Origin: a virus
Lineage: Duplodnaviria > Heunggongvirae > Uroviricota > Caudoviricetes
Length of the DNA: 19,671 nt
IMG/VR virus record: IMGVR_UViG_2541047866_000010
Reading direction: 5' to 3' (one strand)
The notes below the pieces were generated by a model that saw only the letters and a list, made by a program, of their open reading frames with translations, did not search any database and was not told the DNA's origin. Positions within the stretch are counted from its first letter, which is position 1, and the number at the start of each line of letters is the position of its first letter. Positions 1 to 18,612 of this stretch are shown one piece after another. The position numbers were made by a program, and so were the translations under genes.

Positions 1-59
1 CGGCAGAAGCAGAAAAAGCTTATTATGCTTCCATCGGAAACGATGATCTGGCAGCCTGA
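1..59 (+). CDS. insF: IS3 transposase OrfB, C-terminal fragment (partial, 5' end outside window)
   Basis: Translates ...[18 protein letters not shown] then stop at 57-59, identical to the C-terminus of the 7791..8681 transposase ORF. Confidence 0.8.
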   Translation, partial: AEAEKAYYASIGNDDLAA

Positions 60-101
60 GTTCACAGATAAAACACTCTCCAGGAAACCCGGGGCGGTTC
101 A
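1..101 (+). mobile_element. IS3-family insertion sequence, right end only (cut by window edge); terminal inverted repeat ends at 101
   Basis: Bases 1-101 are the exact reverse complement of 7749-7849, the right end of the complete IS3 copy. Terminal repeat TCCAGGAAACCCGGGGCGGTTCA ends at 101. Confidence 0.85.
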
Positions 102-892
102 TAACTACCGAACCGTGACGCGATGCATAACCTTTAGCATCTGGCCCTGTATCTGATGGGTCATGCGCAGAGACAACAGCGCCTTTCGCTTTCCATCCGA
201 GTTTCTTGTGCGCATCGGTTGCGGCTTCAAGCCATTCACGTTTGATGATTGCCATATCACTTGCGCTTACTGGCTCACCAAGCCAGATGTGACGATACAG
301 TGTCGGGTTTCTGCGTTTACACTCTTCCATCTCCAGACGGAGAACTTCAGGAAAGTGCGGGTTGTCGGTGTAGTTCACCGTCAGCAGACAAATATCATCG
401 GGAGGGTTTACTACGAATCGCTGATAGGTATCGTCGAGGATGTTTTTCGGGTTGAAGCTCACCCATATTTCGGAAAATGGCTTGCGGATGGTTGGTATCA
501 GGATATCCCATGATTCCTTCGTTACCGCTTCCGCTTCCTCCACCCAGCAGATATCAATGCCTTCGAGCGATTTAATCTTCGTCGGGTTGTTTTTGATGCC
601 GTAGAACATGAACTCAGCATTCGTCCCGAGATGACGAATCATGGAACGCTGAATTTCAAACTCAGCCGTATACCCTTCACGCTCTATGGTGTCTTCAAGC
701 AGCCGGATTACCGAATCGCTGATACTGTTTTGCAGTTCACGAGCGCAGAGAATACGCACTGGCTGCCGACGCGCCGCTTCAACAAGCAGTCTCGCAATTG
801 CCCATGATTTACCGCTACCTCGACCGCCTTTGGCGACTTTGTAGCGATGCGCCTCAATGAACGGTTCAAAGATAGGATTAATCGAGGTCATT
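102..892 (-). pseudogene. Terminase large subunit, N-terminal ~263 codons, interrupted by the IS3 end at 101
   Basis: Own translation from ATG at 892 gives MTSINPIFEPFIEAHRYKVAKGGRGSGKSWAIARLL... with a Walker A motif (GGRGSGKS). The frame stays open into the IS3 end and off the window, so it is absent from the ORF track. Start overlaps the small-subunit stop. Confidence 0.75.
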
Positions 893-3599: not shown

Positions 3600-3906
3600 C
3601 TTCTACTCCGGCTTTTTTAGCAGCGAAGCGTTTGATAAGCGAACCAATCGAGTCAGTACCGATGTAGCCGATGAACACGCTCGTTATATAAGCGAGATTG
3701 CTACTTAGTCCGGCGAAGTCGAGAAGGTCACGAATGAACCAGGCGATAATGGCGCACATCGTTGCGTCGATTACTGTTTTTGTAAACGCACCGCCATTAT
3801 ATCTGCCGCGAAGGTACGCCATTGCAAACGCAAGGATTGCCCCGATGCCTTGTTCCTTTGCCGCGAGAATGGCGGCTAACAGGTCATGTTTTTCTGGCAT
3901 CTTCAT
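3583..3906 (-). CDS. S: Holin S (class I, dual-start MKM motif)
   Basis: 107 aa [39 protein letters not shown]..., matching lambda S107/S105 as recalled. Confidence 0.95.
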
Positions 3907-4020
3907 GTCTTACCCCCAATAAGGGGATTTGCTCTATTTAATTAGGAATAAGGTCGATTACTGATAGAACAAATCCAGGCTACTGTGTTTAGTAATCAGA
4001 TTTGTTCGTGACCGATATGC

Positions 4021-4061
4021 ACGGGCAAAACGGCATGAGGTTGTTAGCGCAACCTCATGCC
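4021..4061 (-). other. Perfect 12-bp stem hairpin (GGCATGAGGTTG / CAACCTCATGCC, 6-nt loop) followed on the minus strand by GTTTTGCCC
   Basis: Arms at 4032-4043 and 4050-4061 are exact reverse complements. Lies in the Q-S intergenic leader about 150 nt upstream of S. Confidence 0.6.
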
Positions 4062-4495
4062 ACCCGCTTTCACGAAGGTCATGTGTAGAAGGCCGCAGCA
4101 TAACTATCACTGATGAATTCAGGATAGCCAGTGGCTACGGCTCAGGTTGGGTTGTGGCGGTCGGTGCTGAACTCCGACTTAATGACGATAGGCGTGTACC
4201 GACGCCTCGTTTTACTTCCTCCGCTTTCACGGCTTCACCCTAGACCAGCTTTACGAAATCCTCGTAAACCTAACCGCGGCAGATATGACCGGCACGGTGT
4301 GCCATATCACGGACCGGCGGGTGTCTCGTTCACCTGATTAACGCATCAGCCTGCGTATTCACCACAACGATAAGAGTACTGCGCGGCACCTTTCACCAAT
4401 TCCGCGAGGTCTGCGGGTTCAATGCTCTTACCTGTTGTGCAAACAAAAAAGCCACCGTTGCAACTTAAGAGTCACTAACGGCAGCTTACCTTCTA

Positions 4496-4525
4496 ATTAT
4501 GGCTAAATGGATAATTGCATGTCAA
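4496..4525 (-). promoter_or_regulatory. Candidate late promoter PR' (-35 TTGACA, 18-nt spacer, -10 CATAAT) overlapping the 3' end of Q
   Basis: Read on the minus strand: TTGACA (4525..4520) lies inside the last Q codons, CATAAT (4501..4496) just after the Q stop. Confidence 0.45.
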
Positions 4526-5021
4526 GGTTTTTAACAGCAACATGCTTAACTTTCTCAACACGTTTACGCATTTTGAAAGCATTTTGCATTGGCTGGTATA
4601 AAACAAATAATGACGCTTTCAGGATGTCGTCAATTTCGTTTCTACAGGTTGCCAGTGAAGGTTTTCTCCATCCCTCGCCACCACGTCCACACATCTTGCG
4701 TGGCTTTGCAGTCGCGTGATAGTAGGATGCAATTGCTCGCTTAGATGAACCATGAGCGTAGTAGCTGAGGAGGATGCCAAAGGCTTTCTTGTCAATGTAC
4801 ATGACGGAATCAACGACCTGAGAAATCAACATTCCATCATCATCATTACACATTGGCCTTGTCATAATTCTTCCCGGCTCTACGCTCTCCATGAACTTCG
4901 CTATTACGCTGCTCATGCGCTTTTCCAGACGACCTGAATAAACCCATGCGCCCCACAGTTCAAGCCAGCCATTCAGCCACTCGTGCTGCTCTTTGGTGAG
5001 GTTTAGTTCTCTTATGCTCAT
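4503..5021 (-). CDS. Q: Late antiterminator Q, phage 82/21 type (not lambda Q type)
   Basis: 172 aa with ELWGAWV, RPMCNDDDGMLIS and LLSYYAHG motifs resembling the Q proteins of phages 21/82 as recalled. Position is between the nin region and the lysis cassette. Confidence 0.7.
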   Translation of the reverse strand: MSIRELNLTKEQHEWLNGWLELWGAWVYSGRLEKRMSSVIAKFMESVEPGRIMTRPMCNDDDGMLISQVVDSVMYIDKKAFGILLSYYAHGSSKRAIASYYHATAKPRKMCGRGGEGWRKPSLATCRNEIDDILKASLFVLYQPMQNAFKMRKRVEKVKHVAVKNLDMQLSI

Positions 5022-7161: not shown

Positions 7162-7334
7162 TTCCTCGCACGATGTCTTAGCAACCGGATATCCCACAGG
7201 TGAGCCGTGTAGTTGAAGGTTTTTACGTCAGATTCTTTTGGGATTGGCTTGCGTTTATTTCTGGTGCGTTTCGTTGGAAGGTATTTGCAGTTTTCGCAGA
7301 TGATGTCGGTGATACTTCGTCGCTGTCGCCTCAT
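7158..7334 (-). CDS. ninE: NinE
   Basis: From internal ATG at 7334: [50 protein letters not shown]..., close to lambda NinE as recalled. Confidence 0.8.
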
Positions 7335-7737
7335 TCGTACCTCCTGTCGGTAAATCTGACACCCTGACCAATAGCCCATGCTGTTGTGTACTCGATCAGA
7401 CTTGCCATACGCTTCACACTCATCTGCGCGCTGCTTTCGCGAATGTTGACGTATTCGCCTTCAAGCCCGGGCAAAACATCAGCTTCCTGTTTTGTTGCCA
7501 CTGCATGACCGCTGATCAACAAAACCTTCCATTGTTCTGGTTTTAACCATTTATCGCGCCACTGAACTTGCCTAGCGATATCTGCGACCATCGCGTGAAA
7601 TTTTGCGTTCTGGTCAAGGTTGCGCTTGTAGTCAGTAATGCGGATGGTGACTGGCTTGTCTTTATCGAGTGGTGTTGCGAGGATGGCATTTATTGCAGCT
7701 TGCTGTTGTTGCTTAGTTCGGAGGAATATTGTTTGCT
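7331..7737 (-). CDS. ninB: NinB (recombination protein), GTG start at 7737; its ribosome-binding site is separated from the start by the IS3 insertion
   Basis: ...[65 protein letters not shown]... parallels lambda NinB. Upstream in-frame codons are IS3 sequence. The AAGGAG formerly 6 nt upstream now lies beyond the IS3 at 9061-9066. Confidence 0.75.
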
Positions 7738-7790
7738 TCACTGAATACTGAACCGCCCCGGGTTTCCTGGAGAGTGTTTTATCTGTGAAC

Positions 7791-8681
7791 TCAGGCTGCC
7801 AGATCATCGTTTCCGATGGAAGCATAATAAGCTTTTTCTGCTTCTGCCGGAGGAGTATGGCCCAGCCTTTCCAGCAATCGTCGATTGTTATACCAGTCCA
7901 CCCACGTGAGTGTGGCCAGTTCCACTTCTGCACGGTTTTTCCAGCTCTTACGGTGTATTACCTCCGCTTTGTAAAGGCCATTGATGCTCTCCGCCATCGC
8001 GTTGTCATACGAGTCGCCTGTACTTCCTGTTGATGCCAGTAATCCGGCTTCCTTAAGCCGCTGTGTGTAGGCCAGCGATACATACTGAGAACCTTTATCA
8101 CTGTGATGGACTGTGCCGGACGGTCGACGGGCCCATAACGCCTGCTCCAGAGCATCCAGCACAAATGTCGTTTCCATAGACGATGAGACCCGCCACCCCA
8201 CGATGTATCCGGCAAACACATCAATGATGAACGCCACATAGACGACCCCCTGCCATGTGCTGACGTAAGTAGAATCAGCCACCCACAACTGGTCAGGACG
8301 TTCTGCCACGAACTGACGGTTTACGCGGTCGCCTGCGACAACGGCTTTCCGGCTGATGGTCGTACGGACCTTTTTACCACGGAGAACACCGGCAAGTCCC
8401 ATAACCGCCATGAGACGTGCCACAGTGCATCTGGCCACTCTGATACCTTCCCGTAACAACTGACGCCAGACTTTACGCACACCGTATACCTTGTGATTTT
8501 CATCGTATACGCGCTGTATCTCTTTCTTCAGCCAGTCATCGCGCTGCGCACGGGCACTGCGTTTATCCGGATGATGTCGCTGTTGCTGACAGTGGTAATA
8601 CGTTGACGGGGCAATATGCAGTTCGCTGCATAGCGGTCCGACCCCGTACTGCTCACGCAGCTTATCCAGCAGTGGCATCAT
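7791..8681 (-). CDS. insF: IS3 transposase OrfB (DDE integrase domain)
   Basis: [30 protein letters not shown]...; -1 frame relative to orfA with overlap across an A-run at 8678-8690. Confidence 0.9.
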
Positions 8682-9004
8682 TTTTTCCAGAGGCGGTCGA
8701 ACTCCGCCTTCGCAAAATAAGCGGAAGCCTGGCGAAGGATATCGTTACTGCGGCGCAGTTCACGATTTTCACGTTCCAGCTCTTTCAGACGCTGACGTTC
8801 AGCGGTGGTGAGCCCGCCATCACCGCCTCCGGTATCCCGCTCATGCTGGCGTACCCAGACACGCAGAGTCTCCGGTGTACAGCCAATCTTTGGGGCAATG
8901 GAACAAATTGCCGCCCACTGTGAGTCATATTCGCCCTGACTTTCCAGAACCATACGAATCGCCCTCTGACGGACTTCGGGGGAAAAACGAGTATTTTTAG
9001 TCAT
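8678..9004 (-). CDS. insE: IS3 transposase OrfA (HTH)
   Basis: [60 protein letters not shown]... with leucine-zipper-like C-terminus. Confidence 0.9.
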
Positions 9005-9065
9005 CCTGTTTACCTCTTTCTCAGGGAGTTTAGTCTCCAGGATTCCCGGGGCGGTTCATACTCCT

Positions 9066-9251
9066 TTATTTTTTATGCCTGTAACCCCATTCTTCCAGCA
9101 ACCTTGCGGCGTACCACCCAAGAAACAAAGGAAAGAACATTACAATGAGATATTTCCCGCCACGGTCAATGTTCGAAATTGACCAGATTACGATGTAACC
9201 AGTGCAGGACAGGAATATTACAAACCCCAAAAAGCTACTTCGTCGACTCAT
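9066..9251 (-). CDS. Small predicted membrane protein (~61 aa, two hydrophobic segments)
   Basis: ATG at 9251 preceded by AAGGAG at 6 nt; two hydrophobic stretches (FLGFVIFLSCTGYIVIWSI and YLIVMFFPLFLGWYAARLL); start overlaps the stop of the upstream ORF. Confidence 0.4.
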   Translation of the reverse strand: MSRRSSFLGFVIFLSCTGYIVIWSISNIDRGGKYLIVMFFPLFLGWYAARLLEEWGYRHKK

Positions 9252-9253
9252 GC

Positions 9254-9568
9254 TCACTCCTTCACTTTGATTCCAGCGGCGCGGATAGCCTCTACATCGC
9301 TTTCGTATTGCGATTCTGCACCTGAGTCATAGCCAATGTGATAATCACCGGGAAGTGGGCCTTTCTTTGGCTTTTGCAGCTCAATTTCAATAGCTGCTCT
9401 CGATGCCTGCCACGTTTGCCAGTGGCCTTGAACATCGTCCATCACGTATTGACCACCAATATCACCACTGCCAATTTCATGGTGATTTTCAGGGTAACGG
9501 ATAAGGTCTGAAGATTCGCCCCCCACGTCGTAACCAACTCTCTTCAAACTGGCATCTGCTTTCGTCAT
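9254..9568 (-). CDS. Hypothetical protein (104 aa); may be the 3' part of a frameshifted gene together with 9489..9671
   Basis: ATG-initiated ORF with no obvious ribosome-binding site; overlaps the upstream Cys-rich ORF by about 80 nt in a different frame. Confidence 0.35.
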   Translation of the reverse strand: MTKADASLKRVGYDVGGESSDLIRYPENHHEIGSGDIGGQYVMDDVQGHWQTWQASRAAIEIELQKPKKGPLPGDYHIGYDSGAESQYESDVEAIRAAGIKVKE

Positions 9569-9671
9569 CTTTCATAAGGCAGTCACATTCAATAAAAATC
9601 GGCTCTCCCCAAGGAGTAGAACCTCCGCTATCACACATTCCTGTGTTATTGCACTTTTGGCACTTGCTCAC
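9489..9671 (-). CDS. Small Cys-rich protein (CxxC...CxC, zinc-ribbon-like), GTG start with good ribosome-binding site
   Basis: GGAGG 5 nt before GTG at 9671; N-terminus MSKCQKCNNTGMCDSGG...IECDC. The frame ends shortly after a G6 run (9519-9524 on the plus strand as C6). Confidence 0.35.
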   Translation of the reverse strand: MSKCQKCNNTGMCDSGGSTPWGEPIFIECDCLMKDDESRCQFEESWLRRGGRIFRPYPLP

Positions 9672-9905: not shown

Positions 9906-9937
9906 AAATAAAAAGGCCTGCGATTACCAGCAGGCCT
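9906..9937 (-). terminator. Rho-independent terminator after the helicase gene (8-bp stem AGGCCTGC/GCAGGCCT, then TTTTATTT on the minus strand)
   Basis: Perfect inverted repeat at 9914-9921 and 9930-9937, followed on the minus strand by a U-rich tract (plus-strand AAATAAAA at 9906-9913). Confidence 0.6.
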
Positions 9938-9962: not shown

Positions 9963-11339
9963 TCATACGTCAGCCCCTTGTGCATATCGTCTGCCACGCG
10001 CAGCAGGTGCATTTGATGCTGTGCAAATCTGTCTGGCTTCATCCTGGTCACATGCAACAAAGTGTCCGTTGCAGAACCGCTGGTAAACCGTACCAAGTGA
10101 GCCAAAACGGTTTTTCGTCACGATGATTTCAGCAAATGGCGCGGCGCTACTGTTCTCGTCATATACCGCTTCCCGATAGAGCATGATGATTGAGTCTGCG
10201 TCCTGTTCAATGCTTCCTGAATCACGCAAATCTGCGTTTGTCGGGCGTTTGTTTGGTCGCTTCTCAACATCGCGTGAAAGCTGACTCAGGGAAATAACCG
10301 GTGTTTTCAGGTCTTTCGCCATCGCCTTCAGGCTTCCGGAGATGTGAGCAATTGCGAGGTCGTTGCGGTCTGCTTTCGGCTTCTCAATCAGGCCAAGATA
10401 ATCCGCCATGATGAGTGAGAGGTTTGGATTTTCCTGTTTGTGCCGTTCTGCGATTGAGCGTATTTCTTCGACCGATAATCGCGAGGCATCGACTACCCAT
10501 ACATCCAAATCTGCAAGCTGACTCATGCCGTTAGCAACACGTGCCCAGCCCTCGTCATCCATCGATGCAGGATTTCGCAGTACGCTAACCGACATCCTCC
10601 CGGCGTTGGCAATGCTTCGCTCTGCAATCTGCAATGCGCTCATTTCCATTGAGAAAATCAATACCCCGCGCCGGACGTCAGAACCAGGAATAACGCGGCT
10701 TGCAACGCCTTCGGCAATCTTCAGCGCCAGTTCGGTTTTCCCCATACCAGGACGAGCAGCGATTATCACCAGGTCTTCCGCGTTCATCCCTCCGGTGATG
10801 GCATCAAGTTCTTCGATTCCGGTCTTCAGGGTATCGGACTCTTCTCCGTTCCTCAGACGCCTGTCAAGCGTGTCAGTGTAGTCGGTGATGATTTCCCCTA
10901 ACCGTACAGGTTTAACCTCGTCACGGGGCTTTCTGATGGCTGAGAGACGTTTTACAAGTTCATCCATCGCCTGACTCGATGCGTCGATGGTTCCGCTTTG
11001 GATTGGTTCACGCATTTCATCCATGATTTCCAGCACCAGACGGCGGTGATAGTTATCCGCGACCATTCCGGCATATCCCTTCAGGTTTGCGGCGCTCGGG
11101 CAGTTTTTGCTGGTCATCAGGATTGACGTGAAATGCTCCTCTCCGCACGCCTCGGCAACCATCAGCGCGTCGATTAGGTTTCTGTTTCTCGCCTGCTTCC
11201 GGATAACCTCGAAGGCTTTCCGGTAGAGCGGAATTGAAAACGCTTCCGGCTCCAGCGTTGCAAGAACGTCACTGGCGGTTGGAGTTAATCCACCAATCAG
11301 CAGGCCACCGATAACGCTCGCTTCGATATCCTGTCTCAT
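9963..11339 (-). CDS. Replicative DNA helicase, DnaB family (P22 gene 12-like)
   Basis: 458 aa with Walker [16 protein letters not shown], DnaB-like N-terminal domain and RecA-like C-terminal motifs. ATGA overlap with the initiator gene. Confidence 0.9.
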
Positions 11340-12931: not shown

Positions 12932-12975
12932 TTCCCGCATTTCGGCGGGAATGAGGACCATGACTGTTAAAGAGC
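12932..12975 (-). promoter_or_regulatory. nutR (boxA GCTCTTTA plus boxB hairpin TTCCCGC-loop-GCGGGAA)
   Basis: Between cro and cII on the minus strand. The same boxA/boxB pair recurs on the plus strand at 14067-14107. Confidence 0.6.
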
Positions 12976-12982
12976 AATTTGC

Positions 12983-13168
12983 TTATGCCGCTTTGCGGTA
13001 AGCGCTTTCTTGATACATCAGGGCGCCAGCTGTAACGACTTCCAGTCGATAGGCGTCTTTCTCTGGGATGACTTCCTTCCACTGAGAGACTGCTGCGTCG
13101 CTAATGCCTAACGCTTTAGCTACAGCACGCTGGGTTCCGAAGTGGTCGATAACATCTTTCTTGTACAT
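12983..13168 (-). CDS. cro: Cro repressor (P22 type)
   Basis: 61 aa MYKKDVIDHFGTQRAVAKALGISDAAVSQWKEVIPEKDAYRLE..., matching P22 Cro as recalled; divergent from c2. Confidence 0.9.
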   Translation of the reverse strand: MYKKDVIDHFGTQRAVAKALGISDAAVSQWKEVIPEKDAYRLEVVTAGALMYQESAYRKAA

Positions 13169-13182
13169 AGACTCGCTCCGAA

Positions 13183-13248
13183 ATTAAAGAACACTTAAAT
13201 TATCCACTAAAGGAATCTTAAGTCAAGTTTATTTAAGATGTCTTAACT
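13183..13248. promoter_or_regulatory. OR operator region with three 18-bp P22-type operators (13183-13200, 13206-13223, 13231-13248); divergent PR/PRM promoters
   Basis: ATTAAAGAACACTTAAAT, ACTAAAGGAATCTTAAGT and ATTTAAGATGTCTTAACT all fit ANTNAAGNNNNCTTNANT. The c2 ATG at 13249 directly abuts the third operator, implying a leaderless PRM transcript. Confidence 0.75.
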
Positions 13249-14066: not shown

Positions 14067-14107
14067 GCTCTTTAACATTGATGGGATTGTCCCGCCGAAA
14101 TGCGGGA
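14067..14107 (+). promoter_or_regulatory. nutL (boxA GCTCTTTA plus boxB hairpin CCCGC-CGAAAT-GCGGG)
   Basis: Same boxA and identical boxB hairpin as nutR, located between PL and the N-like gene. Confidence 0.65.
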
Positions 14108-14420: not shown

Positions 14421-14720
14421 ATGACAGTAGTCATTACATATCTGGCTGACGATAACGCCAGAAATCGCCGCAGAGCACGCAGACAGGCTCAACGTGAACA
14501 GGCGATGCAAGAACAGCGACTGGCGCGAAAAATTGCGCTAAAGCTCTCTGGTTGCGTCAGAGCGGATAAAGCAGCATCACTCGGAATCCTTCGCTGCAAG
14601 AAGGCAGATGAAGTCGAGAGTAAACAGAATCGTATTTACTACCGCAAGCCACGCAGTGAAATGGGTGTGACTTGTGTTGGTCGCCAGAAAATGAAATTAG
14701 GCAGCAAACCACTTATTTGA
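14421..14720 (+). CDS. N: N-like transcription antiterminator (arginine-rich motif)
   Basis: From ATG at 14421 (GGAGG 5-6 nt upstream): MTVVITYLADDNARNRRRARRQAQREQAMQEQR..., an arginine-rich motif like lambda/P22 N proteins. First gene after PL/nutL. Confidence 0.65.
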   Translation: MTVVITYLADDNARNRRRARRQAQREQAMQEQRLARKIALKLSGCVRADKAASLGILRCKKADEVESKQNRIYYRKPRSEMGVTCVGRQKMKLGSKPLI

Positions 14721-17129: not shown

Positions 17130-17223
17130 GGAATTTACCATGAGAGGACTTGCTTAAGAGAAAGAGTTTCGGTTCTGTTAATGACAACAAATATCTGAAT
17201 GCGATGTGGCGGAGTGGGAAGAA

Positions 17224-17742
17224 ATGAAACAAATGTCACTAATTGAGATGGATGGTTTTCTGAAAGGTAAATGCATCCCAAGTGATTTAAAGGTTAACGA
17301 AACAAACGCTGAATACCTTGTCCGTAAGTTCGGTGAACTTGAATCAAAACTGGAAACGGCGTTGCGGGAGTGTAGTTCTGCTGGAATCACGATTGATAAC
17401 CTTGAGGCTAAATGCGCGAAGATGGCTGCTGAAAATACCTCACTTAAGCAATCTGAGAAGGAATTTAATGACTTTTGTCGTGAGGAGTTTAGCGAATGGG
17501 AAGATGATGTTACTGAAACCCCAGCCACCGATGCTTTTCTGGCTGAAGTGCGGGCGCAGGGGGTGGATGCTGCTATAGAAGCTGCAAAAAATCTGGTGGC
17601 CCAAGAATATGAGTATAAGGATTTCAAAGCGGCGCAGAGTGATTGCTGTATGCACCCTGGTTCAGACCTGGTAGGGAAGGTTGAAATGACTGAGTGGTTA
17701 GTTGACTTTGCTGCCCAGCTTCGCAAAGGAGGCAACCAGTGA
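17224..17742 (+). CDS. Hypothetical protein (~172 aa; track ORF begins at GTG 17206)
   Basis: ATG at 17224 with GGAG about 9 nt upstream; acidic, predicted helical; no motif recognised. Confidence 0.4.
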   Translation: MKQMSLIEMDGFLKGKCIPSDLKVNETNAEYLVRKFGELESKLETALRECSSAGITIDNLEAKCAKMAAENTSLKQSEKEFNDFCREEFSEWEDDVTETPATDAFLAEVRAQGVDAAIEAAKNLVAQEYEYKDFKAAQSDCCMHPGSDLVGKVEMTEWLVDFAAQLRKGGNQ

Positions 17743-18039: not shown

Positions 18040-18612
18040 ATGACCAAAATTAACTATCAGGCACTGCGTGAGGCGGCAGAACGTGCAATTCCGGCAATGG
18101 AACGCCTGTTAATGTTGCCAGTTGATGATGATTTGTTAAGTGAACAGGAACTTAAGGATTACGGTGTGGATATTGATGCGCTCAACGCCTTCAAATTTCT
18201 GACCGGACCAGAAACCGTGCTGGCGCTGCTGGATGAACGGGAAAGAAACCAGCAATACATCAAACGCCGCGACCAGGAGAACGAGGAAATTGCGCTAACG
18301 GTAGGGAAGCTGCGCGTTGAGCTGGAAGCTGCAGAGAAGCGCATTGCAGAACTGGAAGCCGAACCTGTAAGCCAAACTTACAAGTTGAACGAGCTGTCGG
18401 GCAACTATCCGGTAACTCCGGATGGTTGGATAAGCTGTAGTGAGCGAATGCCCGCTCAAGATGATTGGATTTTAATTTATTCAAAGCACGGCGAGTATAT
18501 GGCAGGACAGGTACAAGGGGAATACGTGGAGTTGAGCGACGGCACTTTATCGTGGTTAGGGAACGCCTTGTACTGGATGCCTCTACCGGAACCGCCGCAG
18601 GAGGTTAATTGA
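18040..18612 (+). CDS. Hypothetical prophage protein with DUF551-like C-terminal region
   Basis: 190 aa; C-terminal ...WISCSERMPAQDDWILIYS...LYWMPLPEPP resembles the DUF551 pattern seen in lambdoid early-left regions (recollection). Confidence 0.45.
   Translation: MTKINYQALREAAERAIPAMERLLMLPVDDDLLSEQELKDYGVDIDALNAFKFLTGPETVLALLDERERNQQYIKRRDQENEEIALTVGKLRVELEAAEKRIAELEAEPVSQTYKLNELSGNYPVTPDGWISCSERMPAQDDWILIYSKHGEYMAGQVQGEYVELSDGTLSWLGNALYWMPLPEPPQEVN

Follow-up and report, generated by a model that had tools for sequence, protein, structure and literature searches.

IS629 is very common in Escherichia coli and Shigella and is especially frequent in prophages. Insertions of IS elements are classically polar, and the N protein of phage lambda is the classical suppressor of this polarity; two insertions in the cII-O region of the lambda PR operon, r14 and r32, are reportedly classical polar IS insertions relieved by N. 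Duplications generated by IS629 measure 3-4 bp, IS1203 and IS3411 are isoforms of the element, and 62% of the copies in O157 genomes are located in prophages (PMC3271280). IS3 proper, i.e. IS3A (insE/insF) of E. coli K-12, has the same architecture, with a helix-turn-helix OrfA, a DDE OrfB, a -1 frameshift and 3-bp duplications, but is 1255 bp long as annotated in MG1655 and not 1310 bp like the element described here.

The window, i.e. the whole stretch of 19,671 nucleotides that was analysed, contains a complete IS629 upstream of the phage gene ninB. This copy shares with described IS629 the length of 1310 bp, the TG...CA ends, orfB in the -1 frame relative to orfA, the ALIL pseudoknot, the 3-bp duplication and the residence in a prophage. 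It is, however, about 2% diverged from the copies of O157 and of Stx phages, and its insertion site, the gap between the ribosome-binding site and the start of ninB, is occupied in a single genome among the 5,426 complete ones of E. coli. As in r14 and r32, an IS is inserted in the early rightward operon of a lambdoid phage with an N/nut system; unlike those insertions, the present one lies in the nin region of a P22-like prophage and splits a gene from its ribosome-binding site while no coding sequence is disrupted. The prophages of E. coli MS8345, BEN5202 and FDAARGOS_1300 possess nin regions near-identical to that of the window, the same NinB accession and an IS629-type element beside truncated phage genes, but their ninB site is empty, their IS is found elsewhere, and each has its own deletion.

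This arrangement is best accounted for by one simple transposition event, in which IS629 entered a P22-like (Lederbergvirus) prophage that is itself located at the dsdC/torI (argW-type) site of the E. coli chromosome. The element would have entered the 11-nt gap between the stop of a small ORF and the GTG of ninB, duplicating GTA (TAC on the plus strand), with the outcome that the ninB coding sequence is kept, its ribosome-binding site is moved 1313 bp away and NinB is probably reduced. Taken as a whole, a simple IS629 transposition upstream of ninB in a decaying, defective P22-like prophage is very probable. The event is of a known, ordinary kind, and both features are already annotated in the genome of strain AH19K002.

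The IS629 copy and its target site

The following features define the element and its target:

7749..9058, minus strand: complete IS629 (IS3 family; isoforms IS1203, IS3411), 1310 bp, recognised by inverted repeats and identity to annotated copies
9034..9058, minus strand: left terminal inverted repeat, transposase-proximal end, TGAACCGCCCCGGGAATCCTGGAGA on the minus strand
7749..7773, minus strand: right terminal inverted repeat, abutting the ninB side, detected with a repeat finder
9059..9061: target-site duplication, upstream copy, TAC on the plus and GTA on the minus strand
7746..7748: target-site duplication, downstream copy, TAC on the plus and GTA on the minus strand
8678..9004, minus strand: IS629 orfA, 108 aa, HTH_Tnp_1
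7791..8681, minus strand: IS629 orfB, 296 aa, rve DDE integrase core
8607..8723, minus strand: ALIL pseudoknot, stimulator of the -1 frameshift for the OrfAB transposase (Rfam RF01497)

According to the repeat finder, the terminal inverted repeats comprise 25 nt and are 92% complementary (TGAACC...GGTTCA); like the ends of other IS3-family elements they are imperfect, start with 5'-TG and end with CA-3'. With the repeats at 7749-7773 and 9034-9058, the element therefore occupies 7749..9058, 1310 bp. The interval given in the sequence-only reading, 7331-9066, covers ninB and the displaced ribosome-binding site in addition to the element; different ends were looked for on realignment and excluded, and 7749..9058 stands. 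On the plus strand of the window the junctions read ...CTTCAC TGAA TAC, TGAACCGCCCCGGG ... CCCGGGGCGGTTCA, TAC TCCTT..., which corresponds to ...AAAAAA TAA AGGAGTA (IS) GTATTCA GTG AAG CAA... on the coding (minus) strand. The target duplication is an exact 3 bp, within the 3-4 bp usual for the IS3 family, and the G of its upstream GTA copy doubles as the last G of the AAGGAG ribosome-binding site. Both transposase genes are co-oriented with ninB and with the PR operon.

Full-length nucleotide identity above 95% is the usual criterion for assignment to IS629, and the element is 97.8-98.2% identical over 1310/1310 bp to copies annotated as IS629 in GenBank (AJ556162, LC567824), which served as references in place of the ISfinder sequence. 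These comparison copies sit in phage BP-4795 and in many Stx phages, e.g. Stx2_499, and PGAP names the transposase of related copies "IS3-like element IS1203 family". IS3 proper was considered as a label and rejected: blastn with a word size of 7 retrieved no significant DNA match between the element and K-12 IS3A (chance matches only, E>=0.7), and OrfB is 28.7% identical to K-12 InsF. The name "IS3" in the sequence-only reading thus holds for the family and not for the element, which is IS629.

The coding content is that of the IS3 family, with a helix-turn-helix orfA overlapped by an orfB with a DDE/rve core in the -1 frame (offset 323 nt); the overlap is an ATGA that follows an A6 run. Profile matches of orfB include rve, HTH_21, rve_3 and the NCBIfam model transpos_IS3 (311.8 bits). 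A predicted programmed -1 frameshift signal is formed by the A6 slippery run together with the ALIL pseudoknot, which scores 120.2 bits with Rfam RF01497 (gathering score 50, E=3.3e-31) and is annotated by PGAP in strain AH19K002 as well. With both inverted repeats, orfA, orfB, the A6 run and the pseudoknot in place, the copy looks intact, and to judge from these features it also looks functional.

Removal of the IS and of one TAC yields AAGGAGTATTCAGTG, in which AAGGAG and the GTG start of ninB are rejoined as the sequence-only reading had described. For comparison with relatives a 600-bp empty site was reconstructed in this way, with 300 bp from each flank. Three E. coli strains, MS8345, BEN5202 and FDAARGOS_1300, each have an exact match to it in their chromosome, and a 40-mer spanning the junction of the empty site has an exact match in phage phiv205-1 (Lederbergvirus). 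Since a 3-bp repeat on its own has a chance probability of 1/64, it is these exact empty-site alleles that settle the question of insertion. Element ends, TAC copies and empty alleles agree in placing the IS between the ribosome-binding site and the GTG of ninB, and both the earlier claim of this position and that of a simple event with the 3-bp duplication of the IS3 family are borne out.

Among 5,426 complete E. coli genomes the empty site, scored as 80% or more of a 140-bp probe, is present in 127, one of which is the type strain ATCC 11775 (100% identity), and the occupied junction in one, AH19K002. Over its 19,671 bases the window differs from AH19K002 by three substitutions and a single 3-bp indel (99.97% identity), and therefore comes from the AH19K002 lineage, though it is not identical to that assembly here. 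AH19K002 is a blood isolate from Melbourne. The 32-mer of the occupied junction, CCCGGGGCGGTTCAGTATTCAGTGAAGCAAAC, has no exact match in the one-genome-per-species GTDB contigs, which says little beyond its rarity. A hot spot at the start of ninB was also considered and rejected: in the other genomes with an IS near ninB, the element is inserted in ren (UTME-12), beside cII (02E060) or elsewhere in the prophage (MS8345, BEN5202, FDAARGOS_1300), and never at this site.

ninB and its displaced ribosome-binding site

Three features make up the interrupted translation unit:

7331..7741, minus strand: ninB (Orf-family recombination mediator), 136 aa, GTG start at 7741..7739
9061..9066, minus strand: displaced Shine-Dalgarno sequence of ninB, AAGGAG, overlapping the TAA stop (9068..9066) of the upstream small ORF
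9066..9257, minus strand: small upstream ORF, 63 aa from GTG

The product of ninB matches the NinB profile over its full length (Pfam PF05772, 1-131/131, 178.9 bits with a cut-off of 23.8) as well as phrog_72, "NinB/Orf homologous recombination mediator", and its accession, WP_000814617.1, is common to the uninterrupted prophages of MS8345, BEN5202 and FDAARGOS_1300. The homologue of the small upstream ORF in phiv205-1 is annotated as hypothetical. In the empty allele the stop of this ORF precedes the GTG of ninB by 11 nt, and ninB is probably translationally coupled to it. In the occupied allele ninB retains an intact coding sequence, but 1313 bp now lie between it and AAGGAG, and it is likewise separated from the stop of the upstream ORF.

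This separation would probably lower NinB synthesis. The loss need not be total, because the G-rich end of the IS (GGGGCGG, 9-nt spacing) offers a weak substitute for pairing with 16S rRNA. Pairing energies with the 16S rRNA 3' end are -8.2 kcal/mol for the empty and -7.2 kcal/mol for the occupied allele, where the duplex is bulged and rich in G-U pairs; as these values do not indicate that the potential for ribosome binding is clearly lost, NinB might fall only slightly. Orf/NinB is described as a recombination mediator (PMC4118853), and since its role is accessory, a loss of NinB would presumably matter little.

State of the prophage and the second IS629 copy

One edge of the window carries the end of a second element:

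1..101, plus strand: right end of another IS629 copy, in the opposite orientation to the first, abutting the truncated large-terminase gene and marking a 6.8-kb deletion

The second copy is 98.0% identical to the first, with 26 differences; OrfA differs by three residues and OrfB by four. In AH19K002 it is flanked on one side by a large terminase truncated at the C-terminus and on the other by a gp10-type "packaged DNA stabilization protein" truncated at the N-terminus. Mapped on phiv205-1, the absent 6.8 kb correspond to positions 18198..25018 of that phage and held the C-terminus of the terminase, portal, scaffold, coat, gp4 and the N-terminus of gp10. With these head and packaging genes missing the prophage cannot form particles, and a plaque assay would consequently be uninformative about the insertion at ninB.

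In the sister prophages of MS8345, BEN5202 and FDAARGOS_1300 an IS629-type element is found by a truncated ant/Rha, helicase or Q gene. Judged by these gene arrangements, the prophage lineage is one of repeated, independent IS-associated decay, and the insertion at ninB would be one step in the IS629-driven decay of a prophage that was already defective.

Operon context and transcription across the element

The signals that bear on transcription across the insertion are:

13199..13226, minus strand: PR-like promoter, TTGACT-16-GATAAT, upstream of cro
12983..13168, minus strand: cro, P22_Cro Pfam match
12933..12975, minus strand: nutR, boxA GCTCTTTAAC and boxB hairpin TCCCGCCGAAATGCGGGA, downstream of cro, read from the sequence
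14067..14107, plus strand: nutL, boxA and boxB identical to those of nutR
14421..14720, plus strand: gene of an N-like antitermination protein, 99 aa, phrog_271 "anti-termination protein N-like", E=2.9e-36
9914..9937, minus strand: intrinsic terminator of tR2 type, 8-bp stem containing 6 GC pairs and then a T run, immediately after the DnaB-like helicase gene
4503..5021, minus strand: Q antiterminator gene, Pfam Phage_antitermQ, downstream of the IS in the same operon
4525..4496, minus strand: PR'-like promoter, promoter scan, 11/12 matches
7331..7933, minus strand: read-through ORF, 200 aa, starting inside orfB and running through the right inverted repeat into ninB

The minus strand reads, in order, PR-like promoter, P22-type cro, nutR, cII, replication protein, DnaB-like helicase (11339..9963), terminator, small ORFs and the IS. 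Beyond the element it continues with ninB, ninE, ninX, ninF, a KilAC antirepressor, DUF1364, rusA, ninH and Q, and after Q with the PR'-like promoter, holin, lysozyme, Rz, Rha, small terminase and the truncated large terminase. A LexA-type repressor, a PL-like promoter, nutL and the N-like gene are encoded on the opposite strand. This gene order, with the IS in the same orientation, agrees with the earlier placement of the element within the PR operon, upstream of nin and Q. The homologue of the N-like gene in phiv205-1 is annotated as N. An N-like protein together with predicted boxA/boxB sites downstream of both PL and PR constitutes a lambdoid N/nut arrangement, and the antitermination system may be active in this prophage.

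The sequence-only reading had further expected the insertion to be polar on Q, and hence on the late genes. In the corresponding alternative explanation, strong polarity of the IS blocks the PR operon, with the result that no Q is made, the late genes stay off and the prophage is disabled by this very insertion. PR (13226..13199) and Q (5021..4503) do lie on either side of the element, which shares their orientation, IS insertions have their classical reputation for polarity, and the roughly 890 nt of orfB beyond the orfA stop, translated only after a rare frameshift, could load Rho. Against such a block stand the N-like gene with its matching nutL and nutR, and the strong intrinsic terminator at 9937..9914 ahead of the IS. 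In lambdoid phages, such a terminator is passed only after modification by N at nutR. Because it has to be read through first, PR transcripts should be termination-resistant by the time they arrive at the IS, and within the element itself the terminator scan detected no coding-strand intrinsic terminator. A termination-resistant complex nucleates at nut sites, N overcomes Rho-dependent termination, and complexes modified by N withstand intrinsic as well as Rho-dependent termination (PMC3526286, PMC2724277). A literature search on the suppression of IS polarity by N returned only general antitermination papers or irrelevant ones. The N-like gene, the nut sites, the upstream terminator and the lack of a terminator on the coding strand of the IS combine to make strong polarity during induction unlikely. 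Moreover, the 6.8-kb deletion of head genes at the other IS copy already disables the prophage, and the insertion at ninB is not needed to explain its defectiveness. We consider a strong polar block unlikely and the claim of polarity on Q weakly founded; with PR transcripts N-modified before they enter the element, polarity on the distal nin genes and Q would probably be small during induction.

Transcription may alternatively leave the right end of the IS, where the 200-aa frame, or in-frame ATGs at 7825 and 7807, would yield an N-terminally extended NinB, or where low-level expression of nin and Q would result in the lysogen. The frame is open from 7933 into ninB, and the IS end lacks a terminator on the coding strand. 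The read-through ORF reported earlier therefore exists, but its start at 7933 is a GTG and not the ATG that had been named, the first in-frame ATG being that at 7825. The GTG shows essentially no Shine-Dalgarno pairing (+2.2 kcal/mol), pairing of the ATGs at 7825 and 7807 is weak (-2.8 and -3.5 kcal/mol), and the ORF is nested in orfB in another frame. A promoter scan of 7200-9400 detected no sigma-70-like promoter, and a hybrid promoter inspected by hand at the junction of IS and ninB has no more than about 7/12 matches. That the frame is open follows from the IS end together with a one-in-three chance of phase, and the ORF is best read as a mechanical, chance open phase through the end of the element. 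Outward transcription or translation from IS629 that gives constitutive low-level extended NinB, or distal nin and Q products, in the repressed defective prophage is highly improbable; if true, it would represent host co-option of part of the nin region. Still less probable, to the point of being negligible, is recombination between IS copies, by inversion or replacement, with flanks that were not originally contiguous. A second, inverted IS629 copy does lie 7.6 kb away (window 1..101), but the duplication is an exact 3 bp, three genomes contain the reconstructed 600-bp empty site without a mismatch, the genes between the two copies follow the order of phiv205-1, and the copies differ at 26/1310 positions and show no sign of exchange; IS-IS recombination or inversion was rejected on the exact empty site and this colinearity. 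A simple transposition of IS629, with little polarity during induction, is the preferred reading.

The locus would thus be a clean textbook case of IS629 eroding E. coli prophages; it bears on no open question, and its junction could be used to mark the lineage of AH19K002-like isolates. In practice, the polarity of an IS in the early operon of a lambdoid phage is not to be taken for granted when N and nut sites are present. For the prophage lineage, the comparison points to at least four strains in which IS629-type elements occupy different positions and are each accompanied by a separate deletion.

Promoter, termination and antitermination signals

Among the regulatory features of the window are:

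4496..4525 (-), near-consensus PR'-like promoter, TTGACA-18-CATAAT
9914..9937 (-), strong intrinsic terminator, AGGCCTGC...GCAGGCCT then TTTTTATTT
12933..12975 (-), nutR, with boxA GCTCTTTAAC and boxB TCCCGCCGAAATGCGGGA
14067..14107 (+), nutL, with boxA GCTCTTTAAC and boxB TCCCGCCGAAATGCGGGA
14421..14720, N-like gene

The PR'-like promoter overlaps the end of the antiterminator gene Q and is separated from the holin gene by a non-coding leader of about 600 bp (3906..4503), in which no match to an Rfam family was found. The terminator is located directly downstream of the DnaB-like helicase gene, a position analogous to that of lambda tR2. Both boxA and boxB are identical between nutL and nutR.

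Other decayed genes

Three further genes are frameshifted or truncated according to PGAP (L001 is the corresponding locus of E. coli AH19K002):

9254..9575 (-), homologue of Sf6 gene 48 (phrog_343), frameshifted
about 17141..17224 (+), L001 22645..22728, DUF2737 gene of the PL operon, lacking its N-terminus
about 18094..18348 (+), L001 23598..23852, ead/Ea22-like gene of the PL operon, lacking its C-terminus

The Sf6 gene 48 homologue carries the same frameshift annotation in the related prophages of E. coli MS8345, BEN5202 and FDAARGOS_1300, and this pseudogene therefore appears to be common to them. The truncated DUF2737 and ead/Ea22-like genes are additional signs of prophage decay.

IS629 copies and associated deletions

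A second IS629 copy lies at the left end of the window:

1..101, extending left beyond the window (L001 4296..5605), inverted relative to the first copy, second IS629 copy

The two copies share 98.0% identity. The second is flanked by truncated large-terminase and gp10-like genes, and 6.8 kb are missing in comparison with the Lederbergvirus phage phiv205-1, i.e. the terminase C-terminus, portal, scaffold, coat, gp4 and the gp10 N-terminus. Its flanks in AH19K002 (…CCAGC / IS / CTACC…) contain no target duplication. Precisely at its outer boundary, the window possesses three bases more than AH19K002 (GGTTCA-TAA-CTACCG at 101..103 versus GGTTCA-CTACCG at L001 5604/5605), and hence differs from the assembly of that strain; the extra TAA may be what is left of either a target duplication or the spacer of a circle junction.

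The prophages of MS8345, BEN5202 and FDAARGOS_1300 belong to the same lineage as that in the window, with identical NinB, NinE, NinX and NinF proteins and an empty ninB site. They carry IS629-type elements at three other positions, each beside truncated genes (ant/Rha and injection protein; helicase and ERF; or Q and injection protein), which indicates that IS-associated deletions arose repeatedly and independently in this prophage lineage.
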